Part shown: positions 3,301 through 43,722 of the stretch, piece by piece
Position numbering within the stretch: the stretch's first letter is position 1
Layout: each line of letters opens with the position of its first letter
Source: an uncultured Gammaproteobacteria bacterium
GTDB taxonomy: Bacteria > Patescibacteriota > Patescibacteriia > UBA9934 > GWF2-40-263
NCBI GenBank assembly: GCA_964588505.1
Contig: CAZPPQ010000002.1
Span: 1-43,722, forward strand
Length of the DNA: 43,722 nt
Direction of reading: 5' to 3'
The notes under the pieces: generated by a model
Told to the model about the DNA's origin: nothing
What the model saw: the letters and a program-made list of their open reading frames with translations, nothing else
The model's database searches: none
Position numbers and translations under genes: made by a program

Positions 3301-4243
3301 CATCATAGAGATACAACGAACTGATTGCGCTTGTCGAACCAAGACCGGACATCTTGACAGTAACTTCAGAAACCGACGTTGCGGAAGCAGACGACAAGCT
3401 GAACTTTAACAGCTTGACGCTGGTAGCCTTGTCGGCAATCGTTACGGCAGCCGGGCTGTCCGAAGCCAAGGAGACCGTGAGGGCTCCGGTGGTCGGAGTT
3501 ACTGCCGTGGCTGTCTGGGCCGTGTTGACAAGAGAAGCCTCGACGGCTGACACATCAGAACCTGCTGTCAAGCCGGAGACGCTGACCCCTGTCCCGTCGA
3601 GCAAAAAGCGGCTCTGGTAGCGGTTGGCTGTAAAGCCAGCGCTTGAAACCAAACGCTTCGTGCTGCCGGAAACGAGATAATTACTGCCGCCGCTTGAGAC
3701 CACAGCGCCATCATAGGCGCTCGCGGCGCTCGTAAGGGAGGCACCGACCGTGTAATCAACAAAGAACACATCCGGGACATCTTCCACGAACTTGTTCCAG
3801 TCACTACCGGCCAAGCCCTGCGCAACGGCTTCTGTTTCGATCCATCGTAGGGATCCACTGGAAGAAACAGCGTACACTTTTGGATCACTCTGGATCTTTA
3901 CCCAGAACGCGCCTGGGCGATAAACGACATTGCCACCAAGCGGGATAGCCGCAAGGTCGCTGTCAGAGAGAGTCTGGACACCCGAGAAGTCCGAATACCA
4001 TGTGAGGTACGTCTTCTCGTTCGGGAAAGCATAACGCTTGCTGTCGGCACCGTAGTAATACACGGTGTTCAGCGTCGTTCCTTTGACAAGGTCGCCCGGC
4101 GAAGCCGCGCGTGCCGTCAAAGGAGCCACGAACGCGGAAAAACCCACAGACCACAAAATCGTGGCTGCGGCGACCGCGATCGACAGCGTCCGCTTTCCCA
4201 TGCGAAGTGAATCGTTCATAAGGAAATTTTGGAACCTTTTCAA
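386..4243 (-). CDS. large secreted/cell-surface protein (1285 aa) with an N-terminal hydrophobic anchor/signal
   Basis: It is one uninterrupted 3.86-kb ORF. The N-terminus reads RTLSIAVAAATILWSVGFSAFVAPLTARA (signal-like). The body is S/T/A/G/D-rich and beta-repeat-like, with no catalytic motif seen. The ORF-track start is TTG; ATGs at 4219 and 4201 are alternatives. Confidence 0.8.
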   Translation of the reverse strand: MKRFQNFLMNDSLRMGKRTLSIAVAAATILWSVGFSAFVAPLTARAASPGDLVKGTTLNTVYYYGADSKRYAFPNEKTYLTWYSDFSGVQTLSDSDLAAIPLGGNVVYRPGAFWVKIQSDPKVYAVSSSGSLRWIETEAVAQGLAGSDWNKFVEDVPDVFFVDYTVGASLTSAASAYDGAVVSSGGSNYLVSGSTKRLVSSAGFTANRYQSRFLLDGTGVSVSGLTAGSDVSAVEASLVNTAQTATAVTPTTGALTVSLASDSPAAVTIADKATSVKLLKFSLSSASATSVSEVTVKMSGLGSTSAISSLYLYDGDTRLTVGRSLNSTSRTTSFGGLSVAVAAGAVKTLTLVADMADYSTSGETFAFEISAASSVKSAASVGGSFPVKGATMTTSATEVGSVTVTKGGTISNPNLGTKQHQAAEFKITAGSSEDVSIQRLKLAVGATATDHKNYTLWQNTTKVADGVVGSDYVIFTFSTPYALAQGNNRLFQVKVDVGGKSGDDIRFAFDENSDVYAVGAKYGFGVTVTKTAYDGITSSACNDATDECSWSDIQGGKVTFAFNGPSTTKISPNTTGVTLMKFTITSQTTADIRDIDFSIFASGTGLLGSDTAGTANYQNFRVINLATGSTVMGPEEFDDTIADGDGSGVANKEAVSFSDDFSMSAGQVLDLAILVDVKDTDANSSTYDIVDADTLTAMIEMDQVTARDVNNNDLTAGTDIVPSADITGNAMEVDASALTVALISPPSSKTVVQGSSDVDFLGMSFAAGSASYAKISAITLEGKGDADGTVAEVDMSMAERVSSCSIYDGITGVLIDGPESFASGSSGAKDVIFSGFSWTIPAGQTYKMLVRCNLANLTPETTISASDDIYTIEVDSTDDVTATDAEGNTISESGSDTINSAQGVAITVTSAGSLTTDLAADSPTGTIVLANSTGVTVSKFKFGATNEAIKITKVLLANGSSLDSSVTSVALEYKNQAGETKTSTSFLSSSAVTFENLDLYVPANDVAYLTVKVNMGEATTANTVSGDTISLDLDADGAAEFEAVGLSSGSTLTGASSGVDDVDAATHEVRKTKPTFSLASGSPSGASVPGLNEVFRFNVSADSRGTVTLDKMTFKLTASDNASSSWEECDTDAADALHIGDATEWEIYNANDSTIKLDADGTTPWTFFIDTGAACSTTTGDMSFMVVDFGASGGSIAAEEIAAGETKTYVLRFDSTGASSANDDTIRIEIPDQNEINSLSVGSGIGLDDDAAIQWDDSNLTNSDALNIDADYLKNLPVTGGTIIY

Positions 4244-4388: not shown

Positions 4389-5447
4389 TTAGTTGCTGGT
4401 GGTGATGTCAATTTCCAATCCGACAAGAATATCTTCCGCTGACTTTACCGTATCATTCACCCGATTCAAGTTTGCAAACGCCCCTTGAAACCCGCCGGCG
4501 GCGAACATATTCATAGCTTCTGAAAGCGTTTTGTTTTGCGCTTGAAGGGCAAGCATAATCGAGCCAAGTTTCTTTTGAAGTTCCTTGCGTGCGGCCGGCG
4601 CGAGAGCCTTTTCCGCCGCGCCTTGCAAAACGGATGTGCGACCGATGCTGGTCATAAGGCGCGTGGTCAAATCCCGATACCGTTTTTGAAATGTCTGCTC
4701 AAGCTCTTGCGAAGTGATGTCGCTGTCATCGGAATCATTCATCTTGACAAGCGTGGACACAATCTTGATGTTGACCGTATCTATAACCGCCTCGGCGTTT
4801 TTTACCTCATCTTTCAAATCGCCGGACGCAACTGGAGCTGTTTGGTTCAAAAGCGTTTTGAATTCATCTGTTTTTTGATCAAGCGAAACAGCAAGCGAAG
4901 ATGTCTCCGGCGCTTTGTCAGAAGCGAGTTGCGCAAGTTCCGCTTGCGCTGAAAAAATTTGATCCGTAAAATCTTCAACCGTGATTTTTACCATTCCTTC
5001 TTTTCCATCCAGTTCTGAAGACATAATGGCAGAGGCTTCTTGAAGTCGGCGGCCAGCGAACTCCGCGTGAAGAAGCGCGCGCTGATTGCCAGAGCCGGCA
5101 AACCGCAGCTGCATACGCTCGGTCGCAAGCTTTACAGGATACAGAACATCGCCAGGCACGGAATTGAAAGAGGCGTTAACGCTCGCGATCCATCCTCCGA
5201 ACACAATAGCAAAAATCGAAGCAACCGCGGCCAACGGCTGAAGCGCGGTTGTTTGAAAACGGAATAAGAAAAATTCAACGTAAGATTTCGCGCCGTATGC
5301 CTTTTGAATCCTTGTCTCTCCGATACCGATATCTTTCGAAATGCGCATCCAAAGCGCTCCTTTCTTTTCTGGAGAAAAAACACCGCCGAACGCTTCGGCT
5401 TGTTTTGCTTTTTCGAATAATTGTCGCACATCATTTTCTGTTGTCAT
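4389..5447 (-). CDS. DUF5667-like membrane protein, putative anti-sigma factor
   Basis: It has one central TM segment (LAAVASIFAIVFGGWIASV) followed by PGDVLYPVKLATERMQL and a long helical region. It overlaps the upstream sigma gene by 4 nt (ATGA). Confidence 0.6.
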   Translation of the reverse strand: MTTENDVRQLFEKAKQAEAFGGVFSPEKKGALWMRISKDIGIGETRIQKAYGAKSYVEFFLFRFQTTALQPLAAVASIFAIVFGGWIASVNASFNSVPGDVLYPVKLATERMQLRFAGSGNQRALLHAEFAGRRLQEASAIMSSELDGKEGMVKITVEDFTDQIFSAQAELAQLASDKAPETSSLAVSLDQKTDEFKTLLNQTAPVASGDLKDEVKNAEAVIDTVNIKIVSTLVKMNDSDDSDITSQELEQTFQKRYRDLTTRLMTSIGRTSVLQGAAEKALAPAARKELQKKLGSIMLALQAQNKTLSEAMNMFAAGGFQGAFANLNRVNDTVKSAEDILVGLEIDITTSN

Positions 5448-6001
5448 ACGGATTGGCGTTCGACATCAATGATCTCCCGAAGTTTTTTTATCGCTCGACT
5501 GATGGTCATACTCGTCGCGGTCTGTGTCTTGAAAATACGCGCGGCGATTTCCTTCACGGATACATCCTCAATGTAGCGCCAGACAAGGACCTGCTGATCT
5601 GTTTCCTCTAACTTTTCCAACGCGCGCTTCAAGAGAGCAACATCGGCGCGGAAAAGAATCTTCTCCGGACTCTCCCGCGACTTCAATTCTTGGCCTGACT
5701 CTTCTTCCATCATCTCAAGAGACACCGTTTGCTTCCGAAACTTGTAAAACTCGGCAATCGTCGTCCGCGCAATCGTGAAAATGAGTCCGGACAAACTCTC
5801 GACTTCCGCAGTCTGTAGATAGGCCCACAAACGCACGAAAGTCGTTGCCGAGGCATCTTCTGCATCTTGAACGGTTGGAAGTTTTCTTATAAAGAACCGC
5901 CTGATACCTTCTGTGTATTCGAGATAAATTTCCTCAAACGCTTTCGGATCTTTGTGAACGCGGACGCGGAAAAGCAAGAATTGTTGTTTTTTCGCGTTCA
6001 T
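5444..6001 (-). CDS. ECF-type RNA polymerase sigma-70 family factor
   Basis: Region 2-like sequence: FEEIYLEYTEGIRRFFIRKL...TFVRLWAYL. Region 4 HTH: VLVWRYIEDVSVKEIAARIFKTQTATSMTISRAIKKLREI. The start is taken at the ATG at 6001 (MNAKKQQ); the ORF track extends to a TTG at 6088. Confidence 0.8.
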   Translation of the reverse strand: MNAKKQQFLLFRVRVHKDPKAFEEIYLEYTEGIRRFFIRKLPTVQDAEDASATTFVRLWAYLQTAEVESLSGLIFTIARTTIAEFYKFRKQTVSLEMMEEESGQELKSRESPEKILFRADVALLKRALEKLEETDQQVLVWRYIEDVSVKEIAARIFKTQTATSMTISRAIKKLREIIDVERQSV

Positions 6002-6134
6002 ATTGGAAGATGATGCGCTGGAAAGAATATCACAATTCAACTTCTTTTTAATCCTAGAATATGCAAAATAATGCCACAAACTGGCCAAAAAATCAAGGTC
6101 TGTCCGGATCTGAAGACCTTGACATCAAAAATAC

Positions 6135-10727: not shown

Positions 10728-10787
10728 AAAAAACTACCCCGAGAGAAGCGACCCGTTCCCGAAGGATTGGATCGCTCACTCTCGAGG
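10728..10787 (-). terminator. intrinsic terminator after the lipoprotein gene
   Basis: The minus strand reads cctcgagagtgagcgatcc...gggtcgcttctctcgggg tag TTTTTT, a long imperfect stem followed by a T-run. Confidence 0.5.
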
Positions 10788-10799
10788 CGAAGAAAAGAG

Positions 10800-12245
10800 C
10801 TACAGTGTGCCGGCTCCGACCACTCCGGTCTGAGTCACCTGCACGCGGAGCAAATAGTTGTCCCATGTTTGACCTGTGGGACGCGGCTGTCTGGCGCAGA
10901 ACGTACGCGCCGTGGCAGTACCGGAACGACACAGGTCGTCGTTTTCCCACCACCGAACGACTGCCGAAATGTCCGGAATGGTCTGGCTCGCGCCGTTCAC
11001 CGAGCTCACGAGCGTGAACTCGTAGAACCCGGGCGGCCACTTCACGAGGTCTGTGAAGTCGAGCGTGAACGCGCCGCTCGCGGGCGTGACAGAGTTCCTC
11101 GCGCGGAACGTCCAGTCAATTGTTCCATTGTCCGTGCCGACAATGAACGCCAGAGCAGACATGAACGGTTCGGAGATCATGCCGGTCGCGGAAAGAACGA
11201 TCGAACGACCCTGGATGTATACGTACGAGCTCCATGCGTCCGGAGGCGTTCCTGCATCCGCAGGCGAACCAGCATCGGTAATCGAGCCTGCACCTGCATC
11301 GGCGAGAACTCCGGCATCTACGATTGTACCCGCGTCGGAAACCGTACCTGCATCCACGAGATCCCCTGCGTCCGCGAGCGAAGAGCCCGCATCCACCGAG
11401 AACCCCGCATCCTCCAAAACGCCAGCGTCCACCGGACCAGCGTCTGTCAGAGTCCCTGCGTCCACGACCGGAGGAGATCCTGCATCGCCGACTGGCGCTC
11501 CGGCATCTGCGGACGAACCGGCATCTTCCGAAACACCGGCATCGCTCTGCGAAGAACCTGCGTCGGCAACGACACATCCGGTATGAATGGACGTGTTCGT
11601 GTCGTCGCAATCGCCGCTGACTTTCGAATAGCCGATGACGACAGAGGCGCATGCCTCGACGAACTGGTCGTCGCGGCCATATCCGTCCGCATCCGCATCG
11701 CGATACCATCGCGTGCGGTTTGCGACCGGACAAGGATCACCTGCATCTGGCGAACTCGCGCCGGCATCCTCCGGACCAGCATCCACGACAGAAATTGGTC
11801 CGGCATCGCTCGCGCTTCCGGCATCCGCAGGCGTGAATCCCACATCCGCCAGACCCGCGTCCGCACAAACTCCGCACACGCCGGCATCGCTCGAATCGAG
11901 CGGACCGGCATCCGGCGCCTGGGACTGCTCGCACGCGAGATCCTCGATGCGGTTGCAGTCTTCACGACGACCGTTTCCGCAGATTTCTGTCGCACCTGGG
12001 TATACCGATGCGAGTCCGTCATCGCAGTCGTCGCAAACCAGTGTGTAGCCAGCCGGAACGCCGCAGATCGTGGCGACCGTATTCGGGTCGCCGCGGCCGT
12101 CCCGATCGTGGTCATAGCACCACGATCGACAGGCCTCGGGCGGCTGACCATCGTCCGGCGCGTCGAACACGGCAGGACCTCCAATGTTGTCGCCGCAAGA
12201 AACGAAGAAAAGTGTGAAGGCCGACATTGCGAACTTGCGCGTCAT
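10800..12245 (-). CDS. GC-rich secreted lipoprotein with two MopE-like Cys/Asp motifs and about 26 DAG repeats
   Basis: The start is at the ATG at 12245, preceded by GGGAGGAG. The signal plus lipobox-like sequence is MTRKFAMSAFTLFFVSC. Motifs: CYDHDRDGRGD...CDDCDD...PGATEICGNG and WYRDADADGYGRD...GDCDD. A long DAGxxxxDAG array follows. Confidence 0.75.
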   Translation of the reverse strand: MTRKFAMSAFTLFFVSCGDNIGGPAVFDAPDDGQPPEACRSWCYDHDRDGRGDPNTVATICGVPAGYTLVCDDCDDGLASVYPGATEICGNGRREDCNRIEDLACEQSQAPDAGPLDSSDAGVCGVCADAGLADVGFTPADAGSASDAGPISVVDAGPEDAGASSPDAGDPCPVANRTRWYRDADADGYGRDDQFVEACASVVIGYSKVSGDCDDTNTSIHTGCVVADAGSSQSDAGVSEDAGSSADAGAPVGDAGSPPVVDAGTLTDAGPVDAGVLEDAGFSVDAGSSLADAGDLVDAGTVSDAGTIVDAGVLADAGAGSITDAGSPADAGTPPDAWSSYVYIQGRSIVLSATGMISEPFMSALAFIVGTDNGTIDWTFRARNSVTPASGAFTLDFTDLVKWPPGFYEFTLVSSVNGASQTIPDISAVVRWWENDDLCRSGTATARTFCARQPRPTGQTWDNYLLRVQVTQTGVVGAGTL

Positions 12246-12348
12246 TTTCGTTCTCCTCCCGCTTTTTAGCGGAAAATGGGGTGATTTCGTTTGTTTGTTT
12301 TGTTCCGAATTGTGAAAGGATTGTTCCAAGTTTCGAAAGGAACGGTTC

Positions 12349-13581: not shown

Positions 13582-16606
<3,025 letters not shown>

Positions 16607-16608
16607 AA

Positions 16609-16640
16609 AAAAACTCCGGGCCGCGCGCTCGGAGTTTTAC
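16609..16640. terminator. bidirectional terminator hairpin after gyrB
   Basis: The sequence aaaaaaactccg ggccgcgcgct cggagtttt has the stem aaactccg/cggagttt. Confidence 0.55.
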
Positions 16641-17133
16641 GTAAGGAGAGCGAGCAAATCTGTTGCTCGTTTTTTCATAGTCTTGAGATCTGTATTTGTA
16701 TCGAGCAGGTGAATCTCGGTGCCGCAATGCTCGAACAGTGTACGAAACCAGTTGCTCAAAAACCGTTCCTGCACGCGCATGAGGTATGCGAGATCTCCGA
16801 ACACGCCACGCGATTCGTCGCCGCGACCTTTCAACCGTGCGACAGCTATCTCCGGAGGGAGATTCGTTATGATGAATCGTACGCCTTGCTGTCATCGCGA
16901 GAAAGCTCGTTCCGGATGGCCGCGCCGATCCACCGGCGCGTCGGTTCGTAAGTGACGTAGACATCGAAATCACGAACCTCCTCAAAACGGGGAGGGTGCG
17001 TTTCTGTCAATTCCCATCTTGACAGTTCGAACACGCGCTTTCCTTCTGTACGCATGGCTTCGGCTTTTGCGCGGATAATCGTTGACTTTCCGCTTCCGGC
17101 GATCCCGTCAAAGACGATCAGTTTTCCGTTCAT
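16637..17133 (-). pseudogene. internally deleted, frameshifted paralog of the Tmk-like kinase at 23374-24093
   Basis: The N-fragment MNGKLIVFDGIAGSGKSTI...YVTYEPTRRWIGAAIRNELSRDDSKAYD matches residues about 1-87 of the intact paralog. It then jumps in the +1 frame directly to FIITNLPPEIAVARLKGRGDESRGVFGDLAYLMRVQERF..., which corresponds to paralog residues about 160-239. The central part, about 70-75 aa, is missing. Confidence 0.8.
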
Positions 17134-17223
17134 GGGTTTCTCCTTTTTGCCCAAAAACAAGTGCAGAGGTCTCTGTAATTTATCCGCGTGTATCCTTTAC
17201 GTCAATCGGTTTATCAACAGCCC

Positions 17224-19927: not shown

Positions 19928-19954
19928 AAAAAAACCGCACCTGTTTAGGTGCGG
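19928..19954 (-). terminator. intrinsic terminator of the PRTase-like gene
   Basis: The minus strand reads ccgcacc taaaca ggtgcgg followed by TTTTTTT. The stop codon lies in the loop. Confidence 0.65.
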
Positions 19955-20577
19955 GAAGGCGCTAAGTCACGCGCCTGAATCAAGAAGTCGACAAGTTCAG
20001 AGTCGTGTGGAAACAACTGTTTCCTCATCTCCTCTTCTGTCAGCCCCTCGAGCTCGTGGCTCAAGTAGTGCAACCACGGGTCATCTTCAGGTTTCCGAAG
20101 CTCATAACACTGGTGCCAGAAGTCCGGCACAACGAGCGGCGGCGGGTTGAGATAGATCCGTCTTTTGTAGTCATGAACCGCAACCTTGATGTCATTTCTT
20201 GGAATTCCCTTGTTCATAATGATGCCTACAAGGTGGCTGATCGTGAGACCGCGATCGTACACATCGTCTAGGAAAAGAACTCTGTCTCCACAGCGCAAGT
20301 GATCGGGATGATAGGTCCAGCCCTCGACACGAACCTCTTCTCGTTCCCCAATGCCTGTGTAGGAACGGGCTGTCACGGCCGCGAAGAGAATACGGCGAAG
20401 TTCCGGGTGCTCCGCCCGCACCCACTTGAAAAATTCGCTGATCGGATTTCCTGTATTGGCCCCTCCGCGAAGGACGATGTAAATCACATCAGGATAGAAT
20501 CCGCTGGCATAAATTTGAGCGCCCAATCGAAAAGAATTGTTACGCATCGTCTCGGGACTGATGAACACTTTGTGCAT
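19945..20577 (-). CDS. type I phosphoribosyltransferase-fold protein (Gpt/Hpt-like)
   Basis: FYPDVIYIVLRGGANTGNPISEFF and the PRPP-loop-like sequence RVLFLDDVYDRGLTISH are present. The start is taken at the ATG at 20577 (MHKVFISPE), with GGAGG 6 nt upstream. The ORF-track TTG at 20589 lies within that SD. Confidence 0.6.
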   Translation of the reverse strand: MHKVFISPETMRNNSFRLGAQIYASGFYPDVIYIVLRGGANTGNPISEFFKWVRAEHPELRRILFAAVTARSYTGIGEREEVRVEGWTYHPDHLRCGDRVLFLDDVYDRGLTISHLVGIIMNKGIPRNDIKVAVHDYKRRIYLNPPPLVVPDFWHQCYELRKPEDDPWLHYLSHELEGLTEEEMRKQLFPHDSELVDFLIQARDLAPSRT

Positions 20578-20670
20578 TTGGTCCTCCAAACCACGCGAGG
20601 TGGTTTCGACACTTTAGACGATCTTCATAAGGTGTACAAGTCCGGCCTTATGCCTTAGGATAATCGGCAT

Positions 20671-21327
20671 ATGTCTGTCCTTACGCGCTTTGCGATTCAA
20701 AAAATCATCAAAGATGGTGGGATTGTTTTTGATCCGCCGCTCGATGCCTTTCAACTCCAGCCGCATGCCGTGGATTTGCGCCTTGGTTATAAATTTCTCA
20801 TCCCGCGCAACTGGACCATTGATGATCGAGGCCGCCGCGCAATCAGCATTTCGATTGATCATCCGGAAGCTTATCAAGGCCAATTCGATGAAGTTGTGTT
20901 AAAGCATGGCCAATACTTCGAGCTCCTCCCGAACGAATTCGTGATTGGCACATCGCTTGAATATGTCGAGATGAACGCGCCAAACTTGATGGCCCTGCTC
21001 TTTCCGAGAACATCCACAAACCGGCGCGGTATTGATCTCTCTCTTTCCGGCATCATAGACGCCGGATACAAGGGGCGGCTTATCTTTCCGATGAAAAATG
21101 AGGCTGGCAATCAGGTGCTGCGCATCTACCCGGGCGAACGCGTCTGCCAGATCATTTTCGAAGAACTCTCTTCTCCGCTCACGAAAGAAGAAACAACTCA
21201 ACATGGAGTCGCCCCGGCAAAATACAGCGGCCTTGAAACGAATGGGTTTAAGCTCGATAAAGACGAAGAAAGACAAATTCTGATCAAGGGACAAATTGAA
21301 GAACTGAAAAAACGGTTCGGGATCTAA
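20671..21327 (+). CDS. Dcd/dUTPase-superfamily protein; predicted dNTP pyrophosphatase rather than dCTP deaminase
   Basis: The N- and C-termini are Dcd-like (QPHAVDLRLGYKF; PAKYSGLETNGFKLDK). The core reads GIIDAGYKGRLIFPMKN and PGERVCQIIF. Pro sits where E. coli Dcd has the catalytic Glu138 (VLEFYN), and the PGERxxQxIF motif is dUTPase-like. Confidence 0.7.
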   Translation: MSVLTRFAIQKIIKDGGIVFDPPLDAFQLQPHAVDLRLGYKFLIPRNWTIDDRGRRAISISIDHPEAYQGQFDEVVLKHGQYFELLPNEFVIGTSLEYVEMNAPNLMALLFPRTSTNRRGIDLSLSGIIDAGYKGRLIFPMKNEAGNQVLRIYPGERVCQIIFEELSSPLTKEETTQHGVAPAKYSGLETNGFKLDKDEERQILIKGQIEELKKRFGI

Positions 21328-21839
21328 AAAAGGCCGAGGCGTTTGCGGACTTCGTCAGGATAATCCGCCAGTGTTTCGCGATACACGTTTTCACGGCTGA
21401 AAAGCTCGTGAGCGTTTTCGACGAGATACGCGTCGCTGATTCCGGCATCTATCAACACATTCCAGCACGGCTCACACATCCACCAGTGGCCATACATATA
21501 CACATCCGCGCCTTCGGTCGGAATATTTGCTTCGCGCGCGACTTTCATCAACATGGGTTCCGAATGTCCTTCCGCATCGTGCAAATGACAAAGATCATAA
21601 CCTTCGCCGGTTTTGCATCCGGCCAAAATACGCGGGCACAGATGTTTTTGCGGTTTCTGATTAAACCCGTTCCCTGCGCGCGCGATCACTTCGCCGCCGC
21701 GCGCTAAAACAATTCCAACCGGAAACAGCGAATCGCCTGCGCATTCCGCGCGCGCTTTCGCGGCCGCCTGCATACACGGATGGTCTGCCGGAACAAATTT
21801 GAACGCGTAACCATGAGGGAGATAGGGATATCGCACCAT
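21324..21839 (-). CDS. CDA-fold (dCMP deaminase-like) zinc deaminase
   Basis: Segments: VGIVLARGGEVIARAGNG, HSE (the H[AS]E zinc/catalytic motif), and MCEPCWNVLIDAGI (CxxC). It has a 4-nt convergent overlap with the Dcd-family gene. Confidence 0.7.
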   Translation of the reverse strand: MVRYPYLPHGYAFKFVPADHPCMQAAAKARAECAGDSLFPVGIVLARGGEVIARAGNGFNQKPQKHLCPRILAGCKTGEGYDLCHLHDAEGHSEPMLMKVAREANIPTEGADVYMYGHWWMCEPCWNVLIDAGISDAYLVENAHELFSRENVYRETLADYPDEVRKRLGLF

Positions 21840-21853
21840 AGGTTCAATAGGAC

Positions 21854-22360
21854 CTATTTTTTTACTCGATAATGCAGTAAAACTGCCTGCATTCCGAGTT
21901 GGGACATTTCGACAAACTCCAAATTCACGCGCCCAAAATCTTTTGTGAGGGGGAGACCATTTCCGAACAGATACGGCTCGATGGTCACAAAAATCTCATC
22001 AACGAGTCCGCCTGCCAAAAATTGGCTGTACACTGATGCACCACCGCACACGGCTAAACTAACAACACCTTCTCGGTTCAGCCGATCCACAAGTTGGGCC
22101 GGCGACTCGGTCGTGAATTCGACCCCTTCAAGAGTCGGATTCTCTTCGCCGGGAAACGACAGCACAAATATCTTACGATCCTTGAGCGGCTTACCGATGG
22201 TCTGAAATGTCTTTCGCCCCATCACGATGATACCGATCTCTTTTGTCTTTTTCACGAAAAATTGCAGATCCTCTTTTGAAGTCCACACCAAAGAACTCTG
22301 TGCGGCAGATTCGGCGATCTTTCCATCAAGAGAAGTGGCGACGATCAGGAAAACAATCAT
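21854..22360 (-). CDS. RibD C-terminal domain / dihydrofolate reductase-family protein
   Basis: Segments: MIVFLIVATSLDGKIA, WTSKEDLQFF, IIVMGRKTFQTIG, and CGGASVYSQFL. It lies immediately downstream of the TS homolog. Confidence 0.7.
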   Translation of the reverse strand: MIVFLIVATSLDGKIAESAAQSSLVWTSKEDLQFFVKKTKEIGIIVMGRKTFQTIGKPLKDRKIFVLSFPGEENPTLEGVEFTTESPAQLVDRLNREGVVSLAVCGGASVYSQFLAGGLVDEIFVTIEPYLFGNGLPLTKDFGRVNLEFVEMSQLGMQAVLLHYRVKK

Positions 22361-22364
22361 AGAC

Positions 22365-22446
22365 GCGGTCTATAGCTTATAGGTTATTGGAAAAATTGGC
22401 GGTCTTTAACTCCTATAAGCTATCACCTATAACCTATAAGCTATCG
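22365..22446. repeat. CCTATAA-type heptamer repeats with a perfect 16-bp inverted repeat
   Basis: atagcttataggttat (22372-22387) pairs with ataacctataagctat (22429-22444). Also present are cctataa gctatca cctataa cctataa gctatcg and a gcggtct direct repeat (22365-22371, 22399-22405). Confidence 0.85.
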
Positions 22447-23286
22447 TTAATACACATTCACCGTAATCGGAATATCTTTGATTGAATCCATTGGTTGATA
22501 CTGCGATTTAAGCTGATCAAACAGCTCTTGCACAAGAGCCGCGTCCCCATTCACGGCCCTGTCATAACTCCCGGGCGGCACGACGAGCTTGATTGGAAGA
22601 TGCTCGTTCGCGCGCGCGATAATTTCGCGCGCCGCGTTAAAATGATTATCGTAAATGTGCGCATTGCTGATGGAGTGCGTGTAAATGCCGGGCCGGACTC
22701 CAAGCCGTTCGGCAAGGATGCTTTGCAGGAGCGCGAATCCGGCCGCATCGTGCGGACATCCGAGCACCATATCATTGCTCCGAATGATATTGTGCAGGTG
22801 CAGTCTTCCTCCCGCGATATTCACGGTAAACGAATACGGACACGGTAAATTTTTCTTCGCATCCGCGCGCAATCCGTCGTCAGCCGGATCCCACGTAATG
22901 ATCACACCGTGACGCGAAGACGGATTTTGCGCGAGATGATCCATGAGCATTTCGATCTGGTTGCGCCCGAAATGTTTGCGCCAACGATACCCATACGCGG
23001 CCTTGATCATCCCATCCTCCTCTCGAAACGAATCCCACACCGGAGTGAACTGCCGGAGCCATGTCGGATCATTCGACCCCTGCAAAAACCAAAGCTGTTC
23101 CGCGATAAAAAGTTTGAGTGGAATTTTTCGCAGGGTAAGAAGCGGAAAACTTTCTTCCGTATCCACGCGCAATGTTACGCCCGGCAACATGCGCGGCGTG
23201 CGCCCGGACCACGGATTCGGCTGATCAATACCGTGTTCGAGGATGTCGCGAATTGCTGTTTGGTATTGCGCATCAAAGGGAGTCAT
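22447..23286 (-). CDS. thymidylate synthase (ThyA) family enzyme with Asp at the Asn177-equivalent position; substrate uncertain (dCMP/dUMP)
   Basis: ThyA-like segments: FPLLTLRKIPLKLFIAEQLWFLQG, YGYRWR, NPSSRHGVIITWD, the catalytic Cys in LPCPYSF, IRSNDMVLGCPHDAAGFALL, SNAHIYDNH, and a ThyA-like C-terminal tail. Confidence 0.85.
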   Translation of the reverse strand: MTPFDAQYQTAIRDILEHGIDQPNPWSGRTPRMLPGVTLRVDTEESFPLLTLRKIPLKLFIAEQLWFLQGSNDPTWLRQFTPVWDSFREEDGMIKAAYGYRWRKHFGRNQIEMLMDHLAQNPSSRHGVIITWDPADDGLRADAKKNLPCPYSFTVNIAGGRLHLHNIIRSNDMVLGCPHDAAGFALLQSILAERLGVRPGIYTHSISNAHIYDNHFNAAREIIARANEHLPIKLVVPPGSYDRAVNGDAALVQELFDQLKSQYQPMDSIKDIPITVNVY

Positions 23287-23358
23287 ACGGAAGTCATCTT
23301 AACCGAACCACGAGTCTGTTCCTAGTGGATAACTTTCTCTACAAAATTTCTCCATTTT

Positions 23359-23367
23359 TGCTATACT
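23359..23367 (+). promoter_or_regulatory. extended -10 (TGCTATACT) 6 nt upstream of the tmk-like ATG (leaderless)
   Basis: The sequence reads tttTGcTATACT attgtt ATG. No SD sequence is present. Confidence 0.45.
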
Positions 23368-23373
23368 ATTGTT

Positions 23374-24093
23374 ATGTCCTCTGGACGTTTTATTGTCGTG
23401 GATGGCATTGCCGGAAGCGGCAAGACTTCCATTCTTGATGCGGCCTCGGTGTGGGCAAAAACTTGCAACCACCGAATTTTCGATTTACGGACTTGGGAGG
23501 AGGAGCGTGGAACAGCTCCGCGCTTCGAGGATGTGCCGAATCACGACGTGTATTTTACGTATGAACCGACGCGTGTTTGGATCGGCGCGGCCATCCGGCA
23601 CGAACTTTCCCGCAAAGACACGCCGTACGATGGGAAGACGCTTGCACACGTTTTTGCCGCTGATCGTCTCATTGCCTATCGGCGCCTCGTCATTCCGGCG
23701 CTCGAAGCCGGAAAAATCGTGATTCAAGATCGAAGCGTCTCCACATCAATTGTCTATCAGCCGATCATGCCGGACGGATATTCGCTTGAGGAACTCCTCG
23801 CGCTTCCGGGCAACGCGCTCGCCATGCAATATCCGCCGAACCATTTGATTCTCACGCGTCTGCCGCCGGAAATGGCCGTTGATAGACTCGGGGGGCGACA
23901 AGAGGAATCACGAGGAGTGTTCGCCGAGCTCGAGTATCTAAAACGCGTTCAAGCAAGATTTGAAAGCGATTGGTTCCGCAAATTGTACGAGTCGCGTGGC
24001 ACACGAATTCACTTTCTCGACACGAGCGTTGAAAAGGAACGGATGATCATGAACGCAAAAACCATCATTGATCACATTTTAACGACTTGTTAG
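23374..24093 (+). CDS. tmk: thymidylate kinase-family (d)NMP kinase
   Basis: The P-loop is VVDGIAGSGKTS. Also present are FTYEPT, AADRLIAYRRLVIPALEAGKIVIQDRSVSTSIVYQ (the DR/YQ motifs of Tmk), and a lid-like GGRQEESRGVFAE. Confidence 0.75.
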   Translation: MSSGRFIVVDGIAGSGKTSILDAASVWAKTCNHRIFDLRTWEEERGTAPRFEDVPNHDVYFTYEPTRVWIGAAIRHELSRKDTPYDGKTLAHVFAADRLIAYRRLVIPALEAGKIVIQDRSVSTSIVYQPIMPDGYSLEELLALPGNALAMQYPPNHLILTRLPPEMAVDRLGGRQEESRGVFAELEYLKRVQARFESDWFRKLYESRGTRIHFLDTSVEKERMIMNAKTIIDHILTTC

Positions 24094-30456: not shown

Positions 30457-32340
30457 ATGCCTTCAGCCAACCCAGAACGCCGCCAGTCTCCAGAAGGAGA
30501 AAAATGGAAGCCGGAAGCGGCCAAAACTCCGGAACACGCCGAGCGCGAAGAACTGCACATTCCAGAAGTCGGAGAAACATTAAAAATTTATGATGCCTCG
30601 GGCAATGAACAGAGCGAGGTTGTTGTTGGGGCAGATAAAAAAGAAGGCATTGTCATTGTCGGCCACGAGACAAGCGGCGCGCCGCGAGTGCGCGAGATTA
30701 TGCCGGGCGAATCCAATTCGCGCGAACGGGCCGAAGAAATGAATGAAAAATTGAATAAGGCTTTTGAAGCGGCCGTTGATGCGACAATCAAAGCGTTTGG
30801 ATTGAAAGGAAAAGAGGCGAAAAATACCCGCGCCAAACTTGGAGAACACCGCGCGCTCATTGTCGCAAAAGCCGCGTCTATGGACGCGCCGGAAGCCGCG
30901 CTGATGGGTTCTGTTGAAGCGCTCACGCACGAAAAGAAGGAAACAAAAGAGGCTGAAAAAAAAGCGAGAATGGAACGTGGGGTGCAAGAAACTCGTCTCG
31001 AAGTTTTGTCGAAACGCGAGGAGGTCGTGCGACTGCGAGCGGAAATCCAGCAAGCGGAAAAAACGGAAAATGAAGCGGTATATAAAAAAGCGAGAAGGGC
31101 TTTTGACAAAGCGTCGAAAAGTCTCCATCTGCAGGAACGCGCGCTTGTCCAACTTGAAAGCTATCTGCGACCCGAGGAACCGAAAGAAGAAATCGTTGAT
31201 GAAGTTGAGGGCACCGTCGAACTCAAACCAAAACCTGTCTATTCCGAAGGGGTCACGGATGTGGAAAATGCCATCGATTTTTCCGAAACTCGCATGCGGG
31301 ATCTGGATAAGGTTCTCCAAAAAGACCCGAAAAATGTCACGGCGCTCAACGAGTGGAATTTATTGAATCATGAGCGCACAGCCGACCGTGTTGTTCTGGA
31401 ATCCCTAAAACGGAAAGAGGACAAGGAACGAAAAGAAAAAAAAATCGAAGCGCTCCGAGCCGAAACAGAAGCTATGGATAAGAAAGAGTTGGCAGAAGCG
31501 AAAAAAGAGATGAAGACGGCCGAGAAAGCGAAAGACGACAAAAAGGCCGAACAATTGCTTGCCAAAATCCATGAACTGGAAAATCCTGCGGAGGACACGA
31601 AAGAAATCAAAGCGCTTAAAGCGGAAATCGCCGAGATTGATGCCAAAGAAGCGAGGCTCGCCGAAGCGGATTGGGAAGGATTCAACGTCATTTCCAAAAG
31701 CGGCGAAGCGCCGGCTCCGGAAGCGCCGTATCTTGATGAAGAGGTGTTGAGCCAACCGCCGCCAGTTCCGGAGGAGATAAAAGCGGATTCGCTAGCGGAA
31801 GATGAAGCACGACAAAAAGAAAAAACGCTCCGTGGAATTTTGGAAAATATTCAAGGGAACAGACGCGGCCCACAACTAAAACCTGCAGAACCCATCAAGG
31901 AAGAAGAGCTGGAGATAGACACAAGCGAATTTGAGAAAAAACCGGAAGCCAGAAAAAAAGAGGGGCCTATTCCGGAAGAGGAGCCGGCGCCAGGTTCAAG
32001 AGCTGAAAAAAACGATGTAAGAAAAGTGGTCGCGAATGTCGCGGAACAACGATTAAAAAAGGAAGAAGAAGCGCACCAAAAAATGTTGCTGGAAGCGTCG
32101 AAAGGGCTCGATATCCCGGCTTCCAAAATTGAAATAGCTATGGCCGCTTTCAAAAACGCAAGACTGTGGGAGAGATTCCGCACAGCAGAAGACAAAATTC
32201 CGGAAAAAAAGTGGCCCGCAAAACTAAATCCATTCAAAAAAGAAAAATCCGAGCGGCAAAAAATATGGGGAGAGATTCAAGCCGCGGCAAAAGAAGCAGG
32301 TATTGACCTCACGAAAGCCGGCAAAAAACGCGCGCGATAA
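30457..32340 (+). CDS. K/E-rich coiled-coil-like hypothetical protein (627 aa)
   Basis: It is a long ORF with a highly charged low-complexity (K, E, A) composition. The antisense ORFs within it are composition artefacts. No TM segment or catalytic motif was seen. Confidence 0.6.
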   Translation: MPSANPERRQSPEGEKWKPEAAKTPEHAEREELHIPEVGETLKIYDASGNEQSEVVVGADKKEGIVIVGHETSGAPRVREIMPGESNSRERAEEMNEKLNKAFEAAVDATIKAFGLKGKEAKNTRAKLGEHRALIVAKAASMDAPEAALMGSVEALTHEKKETKEAEKKARMERGVQETRLEVLSKREEVVRLRAEIQQAEKTENEAVYKKARRAFDKASKSLHLQERALVQLESYLRPEEPKEEIVDEVEGTVELKPKPVYSEGVTDVENAIDFSETRMRDLDKVLQKDPKNVTALNEWNLLNHERTADRVVLESLKRKEDKERKEKKIEALRAETEAMDKKELAEAKKEMKTAEKAKDDKKAEQLLAKIHELENPAEDTKEIKALKAEIAEIDAKEARLAEADWEGFNVISKSGEAPAPEAPYLDEEVLSQPPPVPEEIKADSLAEDEARQKEKTLRGILENIQGNRRGPQLKPAEPIKEEELEIDTSEFEKKPEARKKEGPIPEEEPAPGSRAEKNDVRKVVANVAEQRLKKEEEAHQKMLLEASKGLDIPASKIEIAMAAFKNARLWERFRTAEDKIPEKKWPAKLNPFKKEKSERQKIWGEIQAAAKEAGIDLTKAGKKRAR

Positions 32341-34419: not shown

Positions 34420-34545
34420 GAGACCTCTAAAAAATCGATGGATTTTCGGTGAATGGGGTAGCCAGCCTCCGAGACGTACTAGAACGTACGTTGAGGAGGT
34501 AGCGGGGCCCCATGAGCCGAAAAGACGCGATTTTGCAGAGGTCTC
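34420..34545. other. 126-nt rod-like extended hairpin
   Basis: Nested pairings: gagacctct/agaggtctc, aaaatcg/cgatttt, ttttcgg/ccgaaaa, tgggg/cccca, cctcc/ggagg, and acgtac/gtacgt around the apical loop tagaac. The right arm abuts the stop codon of the upstream gene. Confidence 0.7.
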
Positions 34546-35678
34546 TACTCAATTTCCACAAAAATATGATCCGTGAGGCGAGGGACGCGCTTCACCCAAA
34601 ACGGAAAAAACTCGACGATGACATCCGAAGCTACGCCATCATCCAAGACAAGCGCCTTTTTGACATCCTCGGCCGTCATGCCGGCAAACCGTGACGGATT
34701 CAATTTTGCGCTGGTGGTCGAGGCAACGGTGCGGCCATCCAAATACACGCGTAGACTCGCGGTTTCGTTCATCACATCCACTTTGTCCGCGACTAATTGT
34801 AATCCTTCCATATTCATTTCGACGAACCTCCTCCCACTTCCCAATTCATTATACAAACGCGTGGCCGCGACTTCCTCGGCCGTATTGCGATCAAAAAATA
34901 CGCCGGTTACACGAGCCTTCATCCGGACGGTAAATTCGTCCGCAGAAGCGCCGACTTTTACACTCGACTCCTGATCGGACACCTGTACCTGAAACGTTTC
35001 GCCGGTGTACATGGTTCCGACTGATTCACGAAGCATGACCTTTGCATCTGTTTCCAAGTCCGCTTTCAATTTCGCAAAAGCTGAATCAATATCGGATTGA
35101 CCGATCGCTTTGGTCGCCACCACTCCGCCAGTGAACGACTCGACGCTATCCGCATACACAAATTCCTGCCGCGCCACTGCAAGGCCAGGAATCGTAAACT
35201 TTATCGGGCCGATATTTCCGGAATCGCCAGGCTTGTCCGCGTGCGCGTCAACAGTCTTTTCTCCGCGAGCCGGAATAAGAATCGTCTCATCAATGCGGAA
35301 TAACACGCCTTCCGGAGAAAGCAGGCGTGTGCGTACGACAAGCTCCTGTTCGCTACCAGACGTATTGTGAATCGTCACTTTTCCATGCGCGATCGCGTCC
35401 ACCATTGTTGTTCCATCTCCGCCCGGCTTTGCGGTTTCAGTCTTTTCCAGAACACGAGAAGCGACACGGCCGCGCACCTCGGTCGGACGCGTCGGAATTT
35501 TTACGACATCAAGCAAAAAATCTGTCTTGATAGTTTCGGCCGTTGTTTTCACGCGGATCGTGGCGCGCATGATTGAAAGATAAACAACGGCAAACAGGAC
35601 AAACAAAACAATAACAAGAAAACTCACGGCAATCCGGCGATAGAGACGCAAAGACGGCCCCCTTGCTTTTGGTGTCAT
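34545..35678 (-). CDS. hypothetical membrane-anchored protein
   Basis: One N-terminal TM (IAVSFLVIVLFVLFAVVYLSI) is followed by a beta-rich domain of about 330 aa. The start is taken at the ATG at 35678 (MTPKARG); the ORF track extends to a TTG at 35747. Confidence 0.65.
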   Translation of the reverse strand: MTPKARGPSLRLYRRIAVSFLVIVLFVLFAVVYLSIMRATIRVKTTAETIKTDFLLDVVKIPTRPTEVRGRVASRVLEKTETAKPGGDGTTMVDAIAHGKVTIHNTSGSEQELVVRTRLLSPEGVLFRIDETILIPARGEKTVDAHADKPGDSGNIGPIKFTIPGLAVARQEFVYADSVESFTGGVVATKAIGQSDIDSAFAKLKADLETDAKVMLRESVGTMYTGETFQVQVSDQESSVKVGASADEFTVRMKARVTGVFFDRNTAEEVAATRLYNELGSGRRFVEMNMEGLQLVADKVDVMNETASLRVYLDGRTVASTTSAKLNPSRFAGMTAEDVKKALVLDDGVASDVIVEFFPFWVKRVPRLTDHIFVEIE

Positions 35679-35746
35679 GTCTATTCGTCGTGTTCTGGCT
35701 GATTTCGGAGTCACAGGAATGTGAAATGATGTGCGTTGATTAAACA

Positions 35747-35771
35747 ACGCCCTAAACCCCTAACGCCCTAC
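35747..35771. repeat. TTAGG-type boundary repeats (CCTAA orientation)
   Basis: The sequence acgccctaa acccctaa cgccctac lies immediately after the dnaE stop codon. Confidence 0.8.
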
Positions 35772-42820: not shown

Positions 42821-43617
42821 AAAATAACTGACACTTTTTCATAAAACATAGGCAAGCAATCTTGCCTCATGCGAAATTTTGTGCCGTGATTGTGTCCGGT
42901 GCGAGCGTCAAAATCCACAAGGATTTTTCCTTCTTCCAATGCTTTCAAAAATCCCTCAAAATTAAATTTCTGCAACATCATCACCTTTGTGTAATGATAA
43001 AATTCTTTTTTTCGGACAATTTTCACTTCGGCCTGAACATAAAAGGCATTGAGTAGTTTTGTTCCGGCCTTGTGTTCCAAATCGTCAAAGCCCCAGTATG
43101 GTTGCGGATCAAGTTCGCCAAGACCAACACGCTTTTTTACCGATTCAACCCATGCTTTATGGCGCAAGTCAGCACTTTTTGCGTCAAACGAAATTAAAAT
43201 CTTTCGCTCCTTTCGGTCAATCACAACTTTGAATCCGCGATCGCTTCGCGATTGCCCGTGTATGGTTTGATGGAAGCTCATCTCTCCTTTTGGATATTTC
43301 TTGCCGTCCTCTTGATGCGCCCAGCCGTATTTTGGCAGAAGCACTTGAGGCACAAAGCGAATTGCGCGCGGCGAAGGTTCAATATGGAAGAGTGTCGTTA
43401 GTGAAGTTGAATTGAGGCGTTGGGCTTTCAATTCCCACTCGGCGGCGTTCGGAATCGGCAGATTGTTTTCTTTGATACCGAGTAAATCCTCAAGAGTATT
43501 GCCGATACCGCCAGCATTTCCTCGCCGCGCGTTAGGAATAAAGCCCATAGCCGATATTTCTTTCAGCTTGGCTATCAGTTCCGGTTTTGTATAAGTTTTA
43601 GGTTTATTCTTTGCCAT
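42817..43617 (-). CDS. MvaI/BcnI-like (MutH-fold) type II restriction endonuclease
   Basis: The sequence GGIGNTLEDLLGIKENNLPIPNAAEWELKAQR...LTTLFH fits the pattern recalled for the BcnI/MvaI family (G..LE...G..ENN....D....ELK). Its stop overlaps the pheT start (ATGA), and it lies 4 nt downstream of a methyltransferase gene. Confidence 0.55.
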   Translation of the reverse strand: MAKNKPKTYTKPELIAKLKEISAMGFIPNARRGNAGGIGNTLEDLLGIKENNLPIPNAAEWELKAQRLNSTSLTTLFHIEPSPRAIRFVPQVLLPKYGWAHQEDGKKYPKGEMSFHQTIHGQSRSDRGFKVVIDRKERKILISFDAKSADLRHKAWVESVKKRVGLGELDPQPYWGFDDLEHKAGTKLLNAFYVQAEVKIVRKKEFYHYTKVMMLQKFNFEGFLKALEEGKILVDFDARTGHNHGTKFRMRQDCLPMFYEKVSVIL

Positions 43618-43621
43618 AGTA

Positions 43622-43722
43622 TTACCAAAGTTTAGATTGGGCTTGATGTTGTTTTATTCTTTTTCGCGCCATTTCGCAATACTCCGGCGAAATATCAATC
43701 CCAATATAATCTCGCTTGAAGT
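43622..43722 (-). CDS. DNA methyltransferase (N6_N4_Mtase-type), C-terminal fragment running off the window
   Basis: The minus-strand translation FKRDYIGIDISPEYCEMARKRIKQHQAQSKLW* matches the typical C-terminal (G)R.(Y/F)IGIE....Y...A..RI end of amino-methyltransferases. Confidence 0.6.
   Translation of the reverse strand, partial: FKRDYIGIDISPEYCEMARKRIKQHQAQSKLW

Follow-up and report, generated by a model that had tools for sequence, protein, structure and literature searches.

The 43,722-nucleotide stretch of DNA analyzed here (positions 1 to 43,722 of contig CAZPPQ010000002.1, assembly GCA_964588505.1; called the window below) carries, at 19945-24093, a cluster of genes of deoxypyrimidine metabolism, in which the thymidylate synthase (TS) homolog has an aspartate in place of the asparagine of ordinary TSs (Asp-type). 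On balance, we take this cluster to be a chromosomal, vertically inherited version of the dCMP-methylation module of phage Xp12, whose main output would be thymidylate formed on a methyl acceptor other than dUMP. Systems of this kind are known from phages; what is new here is a conserved, chromosomal and apparently housekeeping version, with a Dcd-fold pyrophosphatase and a deaminase subfamily of its own. No report of dCMP methylation or of a 5-methyl-dCMP route in Patescibacteria (Candidate Phyla Radiation, CPR) was found in the literature searchable, in which patescibacterial thyA is treated as ordinary, and databases name these proteins thymidylate synthase (thyA) and dCTP deaminase (dcd).

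All six of the open reading frames (ORFs) that the original prediction had described as contiguous are present at exactly the bounds it gave, and Pfam and NCBIfam support the family assignment of five of them. The TS homolog (22447-23286, minus strand; PF00303, 8e-52) carries the cytosine-type Asp that had been claimed for it: in an HMMER alignment its 'GCPHDAAGF' falls on the 'G(V/L)PFNIASY' of solved TSs, so that E. coli Asn177 is replaced by Asp. In addition, Pro stands at E. coli His147 and Asn at Leu143, and Ser167, Arg126, Asp169, Cys146, Glu58, Tyr94, His207 and Tyr209 are retained. The catalytic residues of the TS fold (Cys146, Glu58, Tyr94, Arg166, Asp169, His207 and Tyr209) are all present in 60 of 60 relatives, as is Ser167 of the pocket, and Arg126 is found in 59 of 60. 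Asp177 occurs in 59 of the 60, together with Pro147, Phe83, His/Gln127, Asn168 and Ile165, and Asn143 in 59/59, the same residue as in Xp12 ('KN[VL]PCP'). The sole exception at position 177 is a TS of 27% identity with the full canonical signature, from the metagenome-assembled genome 'bacterium isolate BP6.bin75' (locus L061), which is the only Asn-type TS locus among 61 loci obtained by scanning one genome per GTDB species.

According to Liu & Santi 1992 and Hardy & Nalivaika 1992, as cited in later papers, the change of Asn177 to Asp makes the E. coli and L. casei TSs use dCMP in place of dUMP. The two positions that best discriminate the TSs of cytosine-modified phage contigs from those of unmodified ones are 177 and 147 (eLife 2021, PMC8670742). 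Ser167 and Arg126 mark the users of deoxyribonucleotides, and Ala and Lys those of ribonucleotides (MilA paper, PMC5175136). Hydroxymethyl products are associated with an acidic residue at 143, and 5-hydroxy-dCMP synthases with Asn at 169 (PMC13326640). The rule for position 143 was applied here by analogy with Xp12, the Asn found there differing from the Leu of ThyA. The Xp12 TS, and five of seven deaminase-linked Asp-type TSs, have been shown experimentally to make 5-methyl-dCMP (5mdCMP; bioRxiv 10.1101/2024.12.05.627091).

Around C5, the twelve residues at a distance of at most 6 Å are WYKNCPISNDGD for the window TS, WYKNCPLSSDGD for the Xp12 TS, WYALCHQSCDGN for E. coli ThyA and WYSDCTMSNDGD for T4 gp42. 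Ten of the twelve, including Asp177, Pro147 and Asn143, are common to the window TS and its counterpart in the phage module of the Xp12/PaMx74 type, to which its overall identity is 36-39%. In BLASTP comparisons the window TS matched the Xp12 TS with 36% identity and 161 bits, and the Xp12 clade with 36-37.5% and 161-171 bits, against 28% and 108 bits for E. coli ThyA and 24% and 47 bits for T4 gp42. A search through all of 1.84 billion cluster representatives gave Asp-type sequences for about 120 of the best 150 (50%-identity clusters), the Asn-type TSs among these 150 starting only at an E-value of about 1e-36. Because its active-site residues and its closest identity match the Xp12 enzyme, the product of which is verified, the window TS can be predicted with good confidence to be a dCMP C5-methyltransferase (5-methyl-dCMP synthase) of the Xp12 kind. 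Among public representatives outside the window, Asp-type TS domains also occur as fusions (P0212, P0257, P0296 and P0246), the partners being dCMP deaminase, MazG/PRA-PH pyrophosphatase, LOG/SLOG (nucleotide N-glycosidase-like) and HNH nuclease domains.

The clustering of these genes is not due to chance. In the 60 Asp-type loci counted for neighbours, a gene related to the predicted deaminase of the window, which has the cytidine deaminase fold (CDA-like), is found in 54, and within 300 bp of the TS in 37, and a dihydrofolate reductase (DHFR) gene in 45, within 300 bp in 39; other neighbours are Dcd-like (19), thymidylate kinase (Tmk; 23) and canonical Dut (17) genes. The CDA-TS-DHFR core is kept in Uhrbacteria, Kerfeldbacteria, Paceibacteria, Nomurabacteria and Vogelbacteria. 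Paceibacteria-type loci are often ordered Dut-Tmk-CDA / TS-DHFR-Dcd-like, with neighbouring genes only a few bases apart, and TS-DHFR-Dcd-like is an operon. In Uhrbacteria the module always lies between rplA and gatB. Uhrbacterial TSs are 70-86% identical to that of the window, those of Kerfeldbacteria 66%, and those of Paceibacteria and Nomurabacteria 52-59%; because identity falls with taxonomic distance, we consider the module to be old and vertically inherited, and no island. The conserved module thus consists of five genes, or six with Dut; of the six-gene cluster of the original prediction, five members stand and the sixth, a gene for a protein of the phosphoribosyltransferase (PRTase) fold, is no member, since none of the 61 loci contains a relative of it. 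A second TS, ThyX or a C5 DNA methyltransferase was found nowhere in about 0.99 Mb of related loci, which covers ±10 kb per genome (ThyX, Dut, Tmk and M.HhaI served as probes).

The Dcd/dUTPase-fold protein (20671-21327, plus strand; PF22769, 5.8e-26) does lack the deaminase Glu, as had been predicted: Glu138 of E. coli Dcd ('VLEFYN') is aligned by HMMER with the Pro of 'LIFPMKN'. This Pro is present in 18 of 18 sequences from Asp-type TS loci and in 120 of 120 top homologs, within the motif GIIDxGYxGxLIFPMKN. The nucleotide-binding residues of Dcd are kept (Arg110, Ser111/112, Arg115, Asp128 and the C-terminal AKY arm), and the score with TIGR02274 is 93.5, the cut-off being 92.8. However, dUTPase motif 3 with the sugar-gating Tyr is also present ('GIIDAGYKG'), where Dcd enzymes have Trp or Phe, and the protein matches NF002598, the family of archaeal Dcd-fold dUTPases. 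In comparison with E. coli Dut, no counterpart of motif 5 (the RGxxGFGSTG-like arm) was seen; the C-terminus is of the Dcd type and lengthened by a conserved helix. Because canonical Dut and the Dcd-like protein co-occur in about ten loci, the latter is probably not just a dUTPase. We infer that it is a dCTP pyrophosphatase, which possibly acts on 5-methyl-dCTP or dUTP as well; the dCTPase-like activity named in the original prediction was, for a Glu-less protein of this type, pure inference too. None of its phage relatives is annotated as a dCTPase, the matches being Dcd/dUTPase genes of archaeal and other viruses, and the paper on Dictyostelium Dcd2, which treats a CPR-related Dcd clade, contains nothing on Glu-less variants.

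Wherever a Dcd-like gene lies beside an Asp-type TS, it is of the Pro type. L061, the single locus on the Asn side of this co-variation, carries two Dcd-family genes upstream, of which one has the catalytic Glu and the other Gly at that position, and a DHFR gene as well. The co-occurrence of the TS type with the Dcd variant, which the original prediction had asked to be checked, is borne out on the Asp side (Pro in 18/18), and its counterpart, the Glu-type Dcd beside an Asn-type TS, is so far represented by one locus.

The CDA-fold gene (21324-21839, minus strand) encodes a dCMP-deaminase-like, predicted zinc deaminase of 171 aa, which matches PF00383 with 26 bits (cut-off 25). By sequence it has no significant match in the PDB. 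An AlphaFold2 (AF2) model built from 32 homologs reached a predicted local distance difference test (pLDDT) value of 92, and its best PDB matches by Foldseek were the dCMP deaminases of T4, S-TIM5, S. mutans, PBCV-1 and human; in a viral structure library the best matches were phage dCMP deaminases. Invariant in the family are H92, E94, C122 and C125, forming an H-x-E...C-x-x-C zinc site, and C68-P69-R70, and C84 and an unusual H118-W119-W120 are also kept. The match to the deaminases of the Xp12 clade is weak and marginal (hhalign), and viral contigs of IMG/VR scanned with patterns from the CDA-like alignment yielded no relative. The protein is predicted to deaminate a 5-methylcytosine (5mC) nucleotide to the thymine nucleotide. 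Many CDA-like deaminases of Uhrbacteria (L006:11393-12307; P0153, P0175 and P0190) carry a C-terminal extension, the window protein being a short form; in several relatives the extension scores as PF05014 (nucleoside 2-deoxyribosyltransferase/DNPH1-like), and it might bind dNMPs or have N-glycosidase activity.

Directly downstream of the TS lies the DHFR gene (21854-22360, minus strand; DHFR/RibD_C superfamily; PF00186, 1e-17; PF01872, 2.5e-19). Its product matches the solved DHFR 1cz3 over its full length (residues 4-168, E 7.5e-29) and the phrog_316 DHFR (4.9e-23), and the motif G-R-x-T-[WF]-x-[ST]-I-G and the Asp27 region are present. In TS-family chemistry, methyl transfer oxidizes tetrahydrofolate (THF) to dihydrofolate, and hydroxymethylation does not. 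A conserved DHFR just downstream of the TS therefore fits methyl transfer and not hydroxymethyl transfer.

The kinase of the cluster (23374-24093, plus strand; TIGR00041, 97.8 bits, cut-off 83) had been called dedicated, but it looks like an ordinary Tmk. In structures of thymidylate kinases, Phe66 stacks on the thymine, and the set of Arg70, Ser97, Tyr100 and Gln101 binds its O4 and N3. When the window protein was aligned to S. aureus TMK, F66, R70, D91-R92, S97, Y100 and Q101 were all matched, so the thymine pocket is complete, and the P-loop is present as well; an Arg that donates to O4 is a poor partner for the amino group which 5-methylcytosine has at position 4. A second, decayed copy adjoins secE at 16637-17160 on the minus strand, where two ORF remnants similar to the Tmk at 23374-24093 remain, an N-terminal one of 97 aa (16867-17160) and a C-terminal one of 65 aa (16637-16834), with about 75 residues missing between them. 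The close relative L065 has an intact Tmk of 236 aa at this secE-adjacent site and none beside the TS; because of this difference in position, we suppose that the gene was duplicated or moved and that one copy decayed. Each of the two relatives compared has one intact Tmk within the stretches read, and since the second copy of the window is a pseudogene, the cluster Tmk appears to be the single Tmk of the cell. In the sister Uhrbacteria L002, L004-L006, L010 and L053, a canonical Dut separates Tmk from the Asp-type TS, about 100-500 bp upstream of the latter. Dut is absent from the window, where Tmk directly adjoins the TS.

Taken in order, the proposed route would start with the Glu-less Dcd-fold protein, which would split dCTP to dCMP and pyrophosphate and may also hydrolyze 5-methyl-dCTP or dUTP as a sanitizer. 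The Asp-type TS would then convert dCMP and methylene-THF to 5-methyl-dCMP and dihydrofolate, as its active-site identity with verified enzymes suggests, and the DHFR, a clear member of its family, would regenerate THF. The divergent enzyme of the dCMP-deaminase fold would turn 5-methyl-dCMP into dTMP, or alternatively act at the triphosphate level like the phage deaminase mSCD-B5, and Tmk, on the evidence of its family and thymine pocket, would phosphorylate dTMP. The net conversion would be of dCTP to dTTP, with methylation first and deamination second. We favour an outcome in thymidylate because the sole kinase of the module keeps the complete thymine pocket, and appears to be the only Tmk of the cell, and because Tmk and Dut, which belong to thymidylate housekeeping, accompany the module in many lineages. 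The lack of a second TS, ThyX or C5 DNA methyltransferase in the 0.99 Mb of related loci (±10 kb per genome) also speaks for it. CMP kinases of cells accept 5-substituted dCMP poorly, which is why the published 5mdCMP assay co-expresses T4 gp1. The existence of a natural fusion of dCMP deaminase and Asp-type TS (P0212) suggests consecutive reactions at the monophosphate level. Of the two hypotheses of the original prediction, the evidence accordingly leans to an unusual dTMP route by way of 5-methyl-dCMP, and the other, genomic 5mC made at the nucleotide level, is less favoured.

The closest known parallel is the module of Xp12 and PaMx74 (Feng, Tu & Kuo 1978; Wang & Ehrlich 1982; bioRxiv 10.1101/2024.12.05.627091). 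In Xp12 (locus L064) the TS neighbours are a PRA-PH/MazG-type pyrophosphohydrolase, a PF00383 deaminase and a DHFR, and relatives such as DoCa10 and AMA2 have a matching arrangement. The same four functions (pyrophosphatase, Asp-type TS, deaminase and DHFR) lie adjacent in the phages and in the cluster, and the logic of obtaining thymine nucleotides by deaminating 5-methylcytosine nucleotides would be shared: the deaminases linked to phage Asp-type TSs are selective for 5-methylcytosine, and it has been proposed, after Wang & Ehrlich 1982, that deamination of 5-methyl-dCTP supplies the dTTP of fully 5mC-substituted phages (bioRxiv 10.1101/2024.12.05.627091). However, the patescibacterial module sits in the chromosome of cells and has been conserved by vertical descent throughout the superphylum. 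Its pyrophosphatase has the Dcd/dUTPase fold and not that of MazG, its deaminase forms a very divergent subfamily of its own (HSE...HWWxCEPCW), and, unlike that of Xp12, it is linked to Tmk and Dut. In the phages, the 5mC substitution of the DNA is complete.

Other systems share single features with the cluster. The canonical bacterial dTMP route (a Dcd or ComEB-type deaminase, Dut, ThyA, FolA and Tmk) consists of the same families, clusters in an operon-like manner, and has the same probable end product, dTTP from dCTP; it differs in that the cluster TS has Asp for Asn177 and Pro for His147 and in that the Dcd homolog is without the catalytic Glu. Because of these substitutions, the order of deamination and methylation is predicted to be reversed in the cluster, and dUMP to be no methyl acceptor. 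The T-even hydroxymethylcytosine pathway (gp56, gp42 and gp1) likewise leads from dCTP to dCMP and then to C5 modification by an Asp-type enzyme of the TS family, but gp42 has Asp143 and forms a hydroxymethyl product without using the reducing equivalents of THF, gp56 is a MazG-like dCTPase, and gp1 is a dedicated broad dNMP kinase. MilA and BcmA, of mildiomycin and bacimethrin synthesis, are also Asp-type TS-family enzymes of cellular organisms; however, they use ribonucleotides (Ala167, Lys126), have an acidic residue at 143, and serve secondary metabolism together with N-glycosidases. Finally, mSCD-B5 and the other 5mC-selective phage deaminases have, like the CDA-like protein, the PF00383/dCMP-deaminase fold and lie beside an Asp-type TS, but mSCD-B5 requires triphosphate or single-stranded DNA substrates, and close sequence kinship to the patescibacterial deaminase was not detectable.

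Several points weigh against a thymidylate route through 5-methyl-dCMP. The phages that possess this module replace all of their cytosine, and an enzyme which destroys dCTP is just what such a replacement needs. The product assigned to the TS is predicted from 34-39% identity to phage enzymes. A dCTPase activity of a Dcd-like protein is without precedent; the protein may be no more than a dUTPase, or else serve as a sanitizer of 5-methyl-dCTP. The CDA-like protein resembles characterized deaminases at the level of the fold only and is no close kin of the 5mC-selective phage enzymes, and mSCD-B5, the one characterized example of these, acts on 5mdCTP and other triphosphates with no activity on monophosphates (bioRxiv 10.1101/2024.12.05.627091), so that a deaminase of its type would require cellular 5mdCTP. 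Dut, moreover, would in many loci make dUMP without an obvious consumer. As to the last product, the pathway may still end in ordinary dTMP even where no dUMP-dependent TS takes part.

In a rival reading, the methylated nucleotide would go into DNA, with 5-methyl-dCMP raised to 5-methyl-dCTP, dCTP removed by the Dcd-like protein, 5mC standing for most or all cytosine of the chromosome, and the deaminase diverting a part to dTTP. The four functions are shared with Xp12, whose DNA is fully 5mC-substituted, mSCD-B5 works on triphosphates only, a dCTP-hydrolyzing enzyme is required, and a C5 DNA methyltransferase is missing from the approximately 1 Mb of related loci. However, the cluster has no dedicated 5-methyl-dCMP kinase, its only kinase having an intact thymine pocket with the O4-binding Arg, and it is tied to Tmk and Dut. 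GC contents of 0.41-0.58 (by isolate names) and of 0.51 here give no sign of a strong C-to-T decay, and we know of no cellular organism with wholesale 5mC substitution. A restriction endonuclease of the MvaI/BcnI family in the window, preceded by a fragment of an amino-(N4/N6)-methyltransferase, points to ordinary site-specific protection but does not discriminate between the two routes. We therefore regard substitution at the nucleotide level as unlikely, and it is a little more doubtful still that Uhrbacteria, Paceibacteria and the other carriers of the module replace most or all of their genomic cytosine by 5mC, which would make them the first cells with a wholesale non-canonical base.

It seems improbable, too, that the cluster makes dTMP in the ordinary way with divergent versions of Dcd, dCMP deaminase, ThyA, FolA, Tmk and optionally Dut, so that the TS still methylates dUMP and the deaminase turns dCMP into dUMP. 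In favour of this, the genes match the canonical set exactly, in sister genomes down to a Dut, which would supply dUMP; the TS exceeds the cut-off of TIGR03284 (thymidylate synthase; 122.5 against 108.35), and the database names are thymidylate synthase and dCTP deaminase. However, five other NCBIfam TS equivalogs (NF002497, NF002495, NF002496, NF002499 and others) remain far below their cut-offs of 325-576. Asn177 excludes dCMP, and the Asp that makes E. coli and L. casei TSs accept it marks every cytosine-using member of the family. Here this Asp is conserved and co-varies with the change of His147 to Pro and with the loss of the catalytic Glu of Dcd, and among enzymes whose product is known the closest ones form 5mdCMP. 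The null explanation of the original prediction, a normal dUMP-dependent TS, thus fares poorly, and the resemblance to phage dCMP modification on which that prediction was built holds for the DHFR-containing Xp12/PaMx74 type but not for the T-even hydroxymethyl type. Indeed, hydroxymethyl, hydroxy or ribonucleotide chemistry, feeding a hypermodified base or a secondary metabolite, is very improbable, although Asp177 is common to all of the enzymes concerned, an 'RSND' motif resembles that of T4 gp42, and some relatives' deaminases bear a PF05014 domain, presumably of the family of MilB/DNPH1-type N-glycosidases. A dCMP hydroxymethylase of the T4 type is rejected on the Asn, and not Asp or Glu as in gp42 and MilA, at 143; a 5-hydroxy-dCMP synthase on the Asp, and not Asn, at 169 in 60/60; and CMP chemistry of the MilA type on Ser167 and Arg126, which are not Ala and Lys. 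A conserved DHFR would be pointless for hydroxymethylation, which does not oxidize THF, and glycosyltransferase or other tailoring genes do not occur in the module.

That the cluster belongs to a prophage or viral island, or that the contig is misassigned viral DNA, is scarcely credible, even though the closest characterized homologs of the TS are phage genes. The cluster lies between secE-nusG-rplK-rplA and gatB, and gyrB, ftsW, glycosyltransferase genes, miaA, miaB, thrS, dnaE and pheT are found farther out. The position between rplA and gatB is syntenic across Uhrbacteria, TS identity tracks taxonomy, and GC is uniform, at about 0.50-0.52 throughout the cluster and its flanks with no shift at the cluster; furthermore, the CDA-like family has no IMG/VR relative under the patterns scanned. 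Close homologs of the cluster proteins are labelled Candidatus Uhrbacteria or Patescibacteria in their source records. The window comes from the chromosome of a cellular organism, an uncultured, ultra-small bacterium of the Uhrbacteria (Patescibacteria).

The known de novo thymidylate makers of cells are ThyA and ThyX, both of which methylate dUMP. If the route by way of 5-methyl-dCMP is correct, a large part of Patescibacteria/CPR would use a third arrangement, in which dCMP is methylated first and deaminated after, previously known only in Xp12-like phages, and the metabolic reconstructions of organisms annotated with thyA, dcd and dCMP deaminase would change. It would bear on how uracil and 5mC are kept out of DNA, or how 5mC is admitted, and would raise the question of whether the phage or the cellular modules came first. 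It would also provide new enzymes, namely a cellular dCMP methylase, possibly a 5-methyl-dCMP-specific deaminase, and a Dcd-fold (d)CTP pyrophosphatase; enzymes of such kinds are already exploited in methylation sequencing.

As to the layout of the cluster, TS, DHFR and CDA-like genes form a co-directional trio on the minus strand, with gaps of 86 bp (TS-DHFR) and 14 bp (DHFR-CDA-like). The Dcd-like gene on the plus strand runs towards the CDA-like gene, the two overlapping by 4 bp, and Tmk is divergent from the TS, the 87 bp between them containing a promoter-like site at 23338-23367. Divergent from the Dcd-like gene is the gene of the PRTase-like protein (19945-20589, minus strand), which shows weak similarity to type-I PRTases: it has no Pfam match, and it matches NCBIfam HGPRT (E 1e-3) and the purine PRTase 4z1o in the PDB (E 1e-3), the latter over a plausible phosphoribosyl pyrophosphate loop, 'VLFLDDVYDRGLT'. 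An AF2 single-sequence model of this protein is unusable (pLDDT 41.7). Its sole recurrence is an intact ortholog of 68.6% identity at the same position in L065, and the gene is a lineage-specific neighbour outside the conserved module. We also considered it as a stand-in for the PF05014 C-terminal domain of the longer CDA-like proteins, but there is no sequence similarity between the two.

Some further features of the window were recorded. The restriction endonuclease of the MvaI/BcnI family is encoded at 42817-43617 (minus strand; PF15515, 4e-66). Directly before it, at 43622-43720 on the same strand, lie the last 32 residues of a gene that ends 'FKRDYIGIDISPEYCEMARKRI...', with a weak match (E 0.01) to PF01555, the C-terminus of an N6/N4 DNA methylase; the two look like a restriction-modification system of the CCWGG/CCSGG type cut by the window end. 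ORFs of 1285, 627, 400 and 307 aa, at 386-4243 (minus), 30457-32340 (plus), 34545-35747 (minus) and 13582-14505 (minus), respectively, have no Pfam match. At 10767-12329 two ORFs of about 500 aa overlap in antisense, where GC reaches the window maximum of 0.57, and the minus-strand product contains a MopE-like metal-binding motif. Finally, a sigma-70 region-4 protein (5444-6088, minus strand) is followed by a DUF5667 protein (4389-5447, minus strand), and the two may constitute a sigma/anti-sigma pair.

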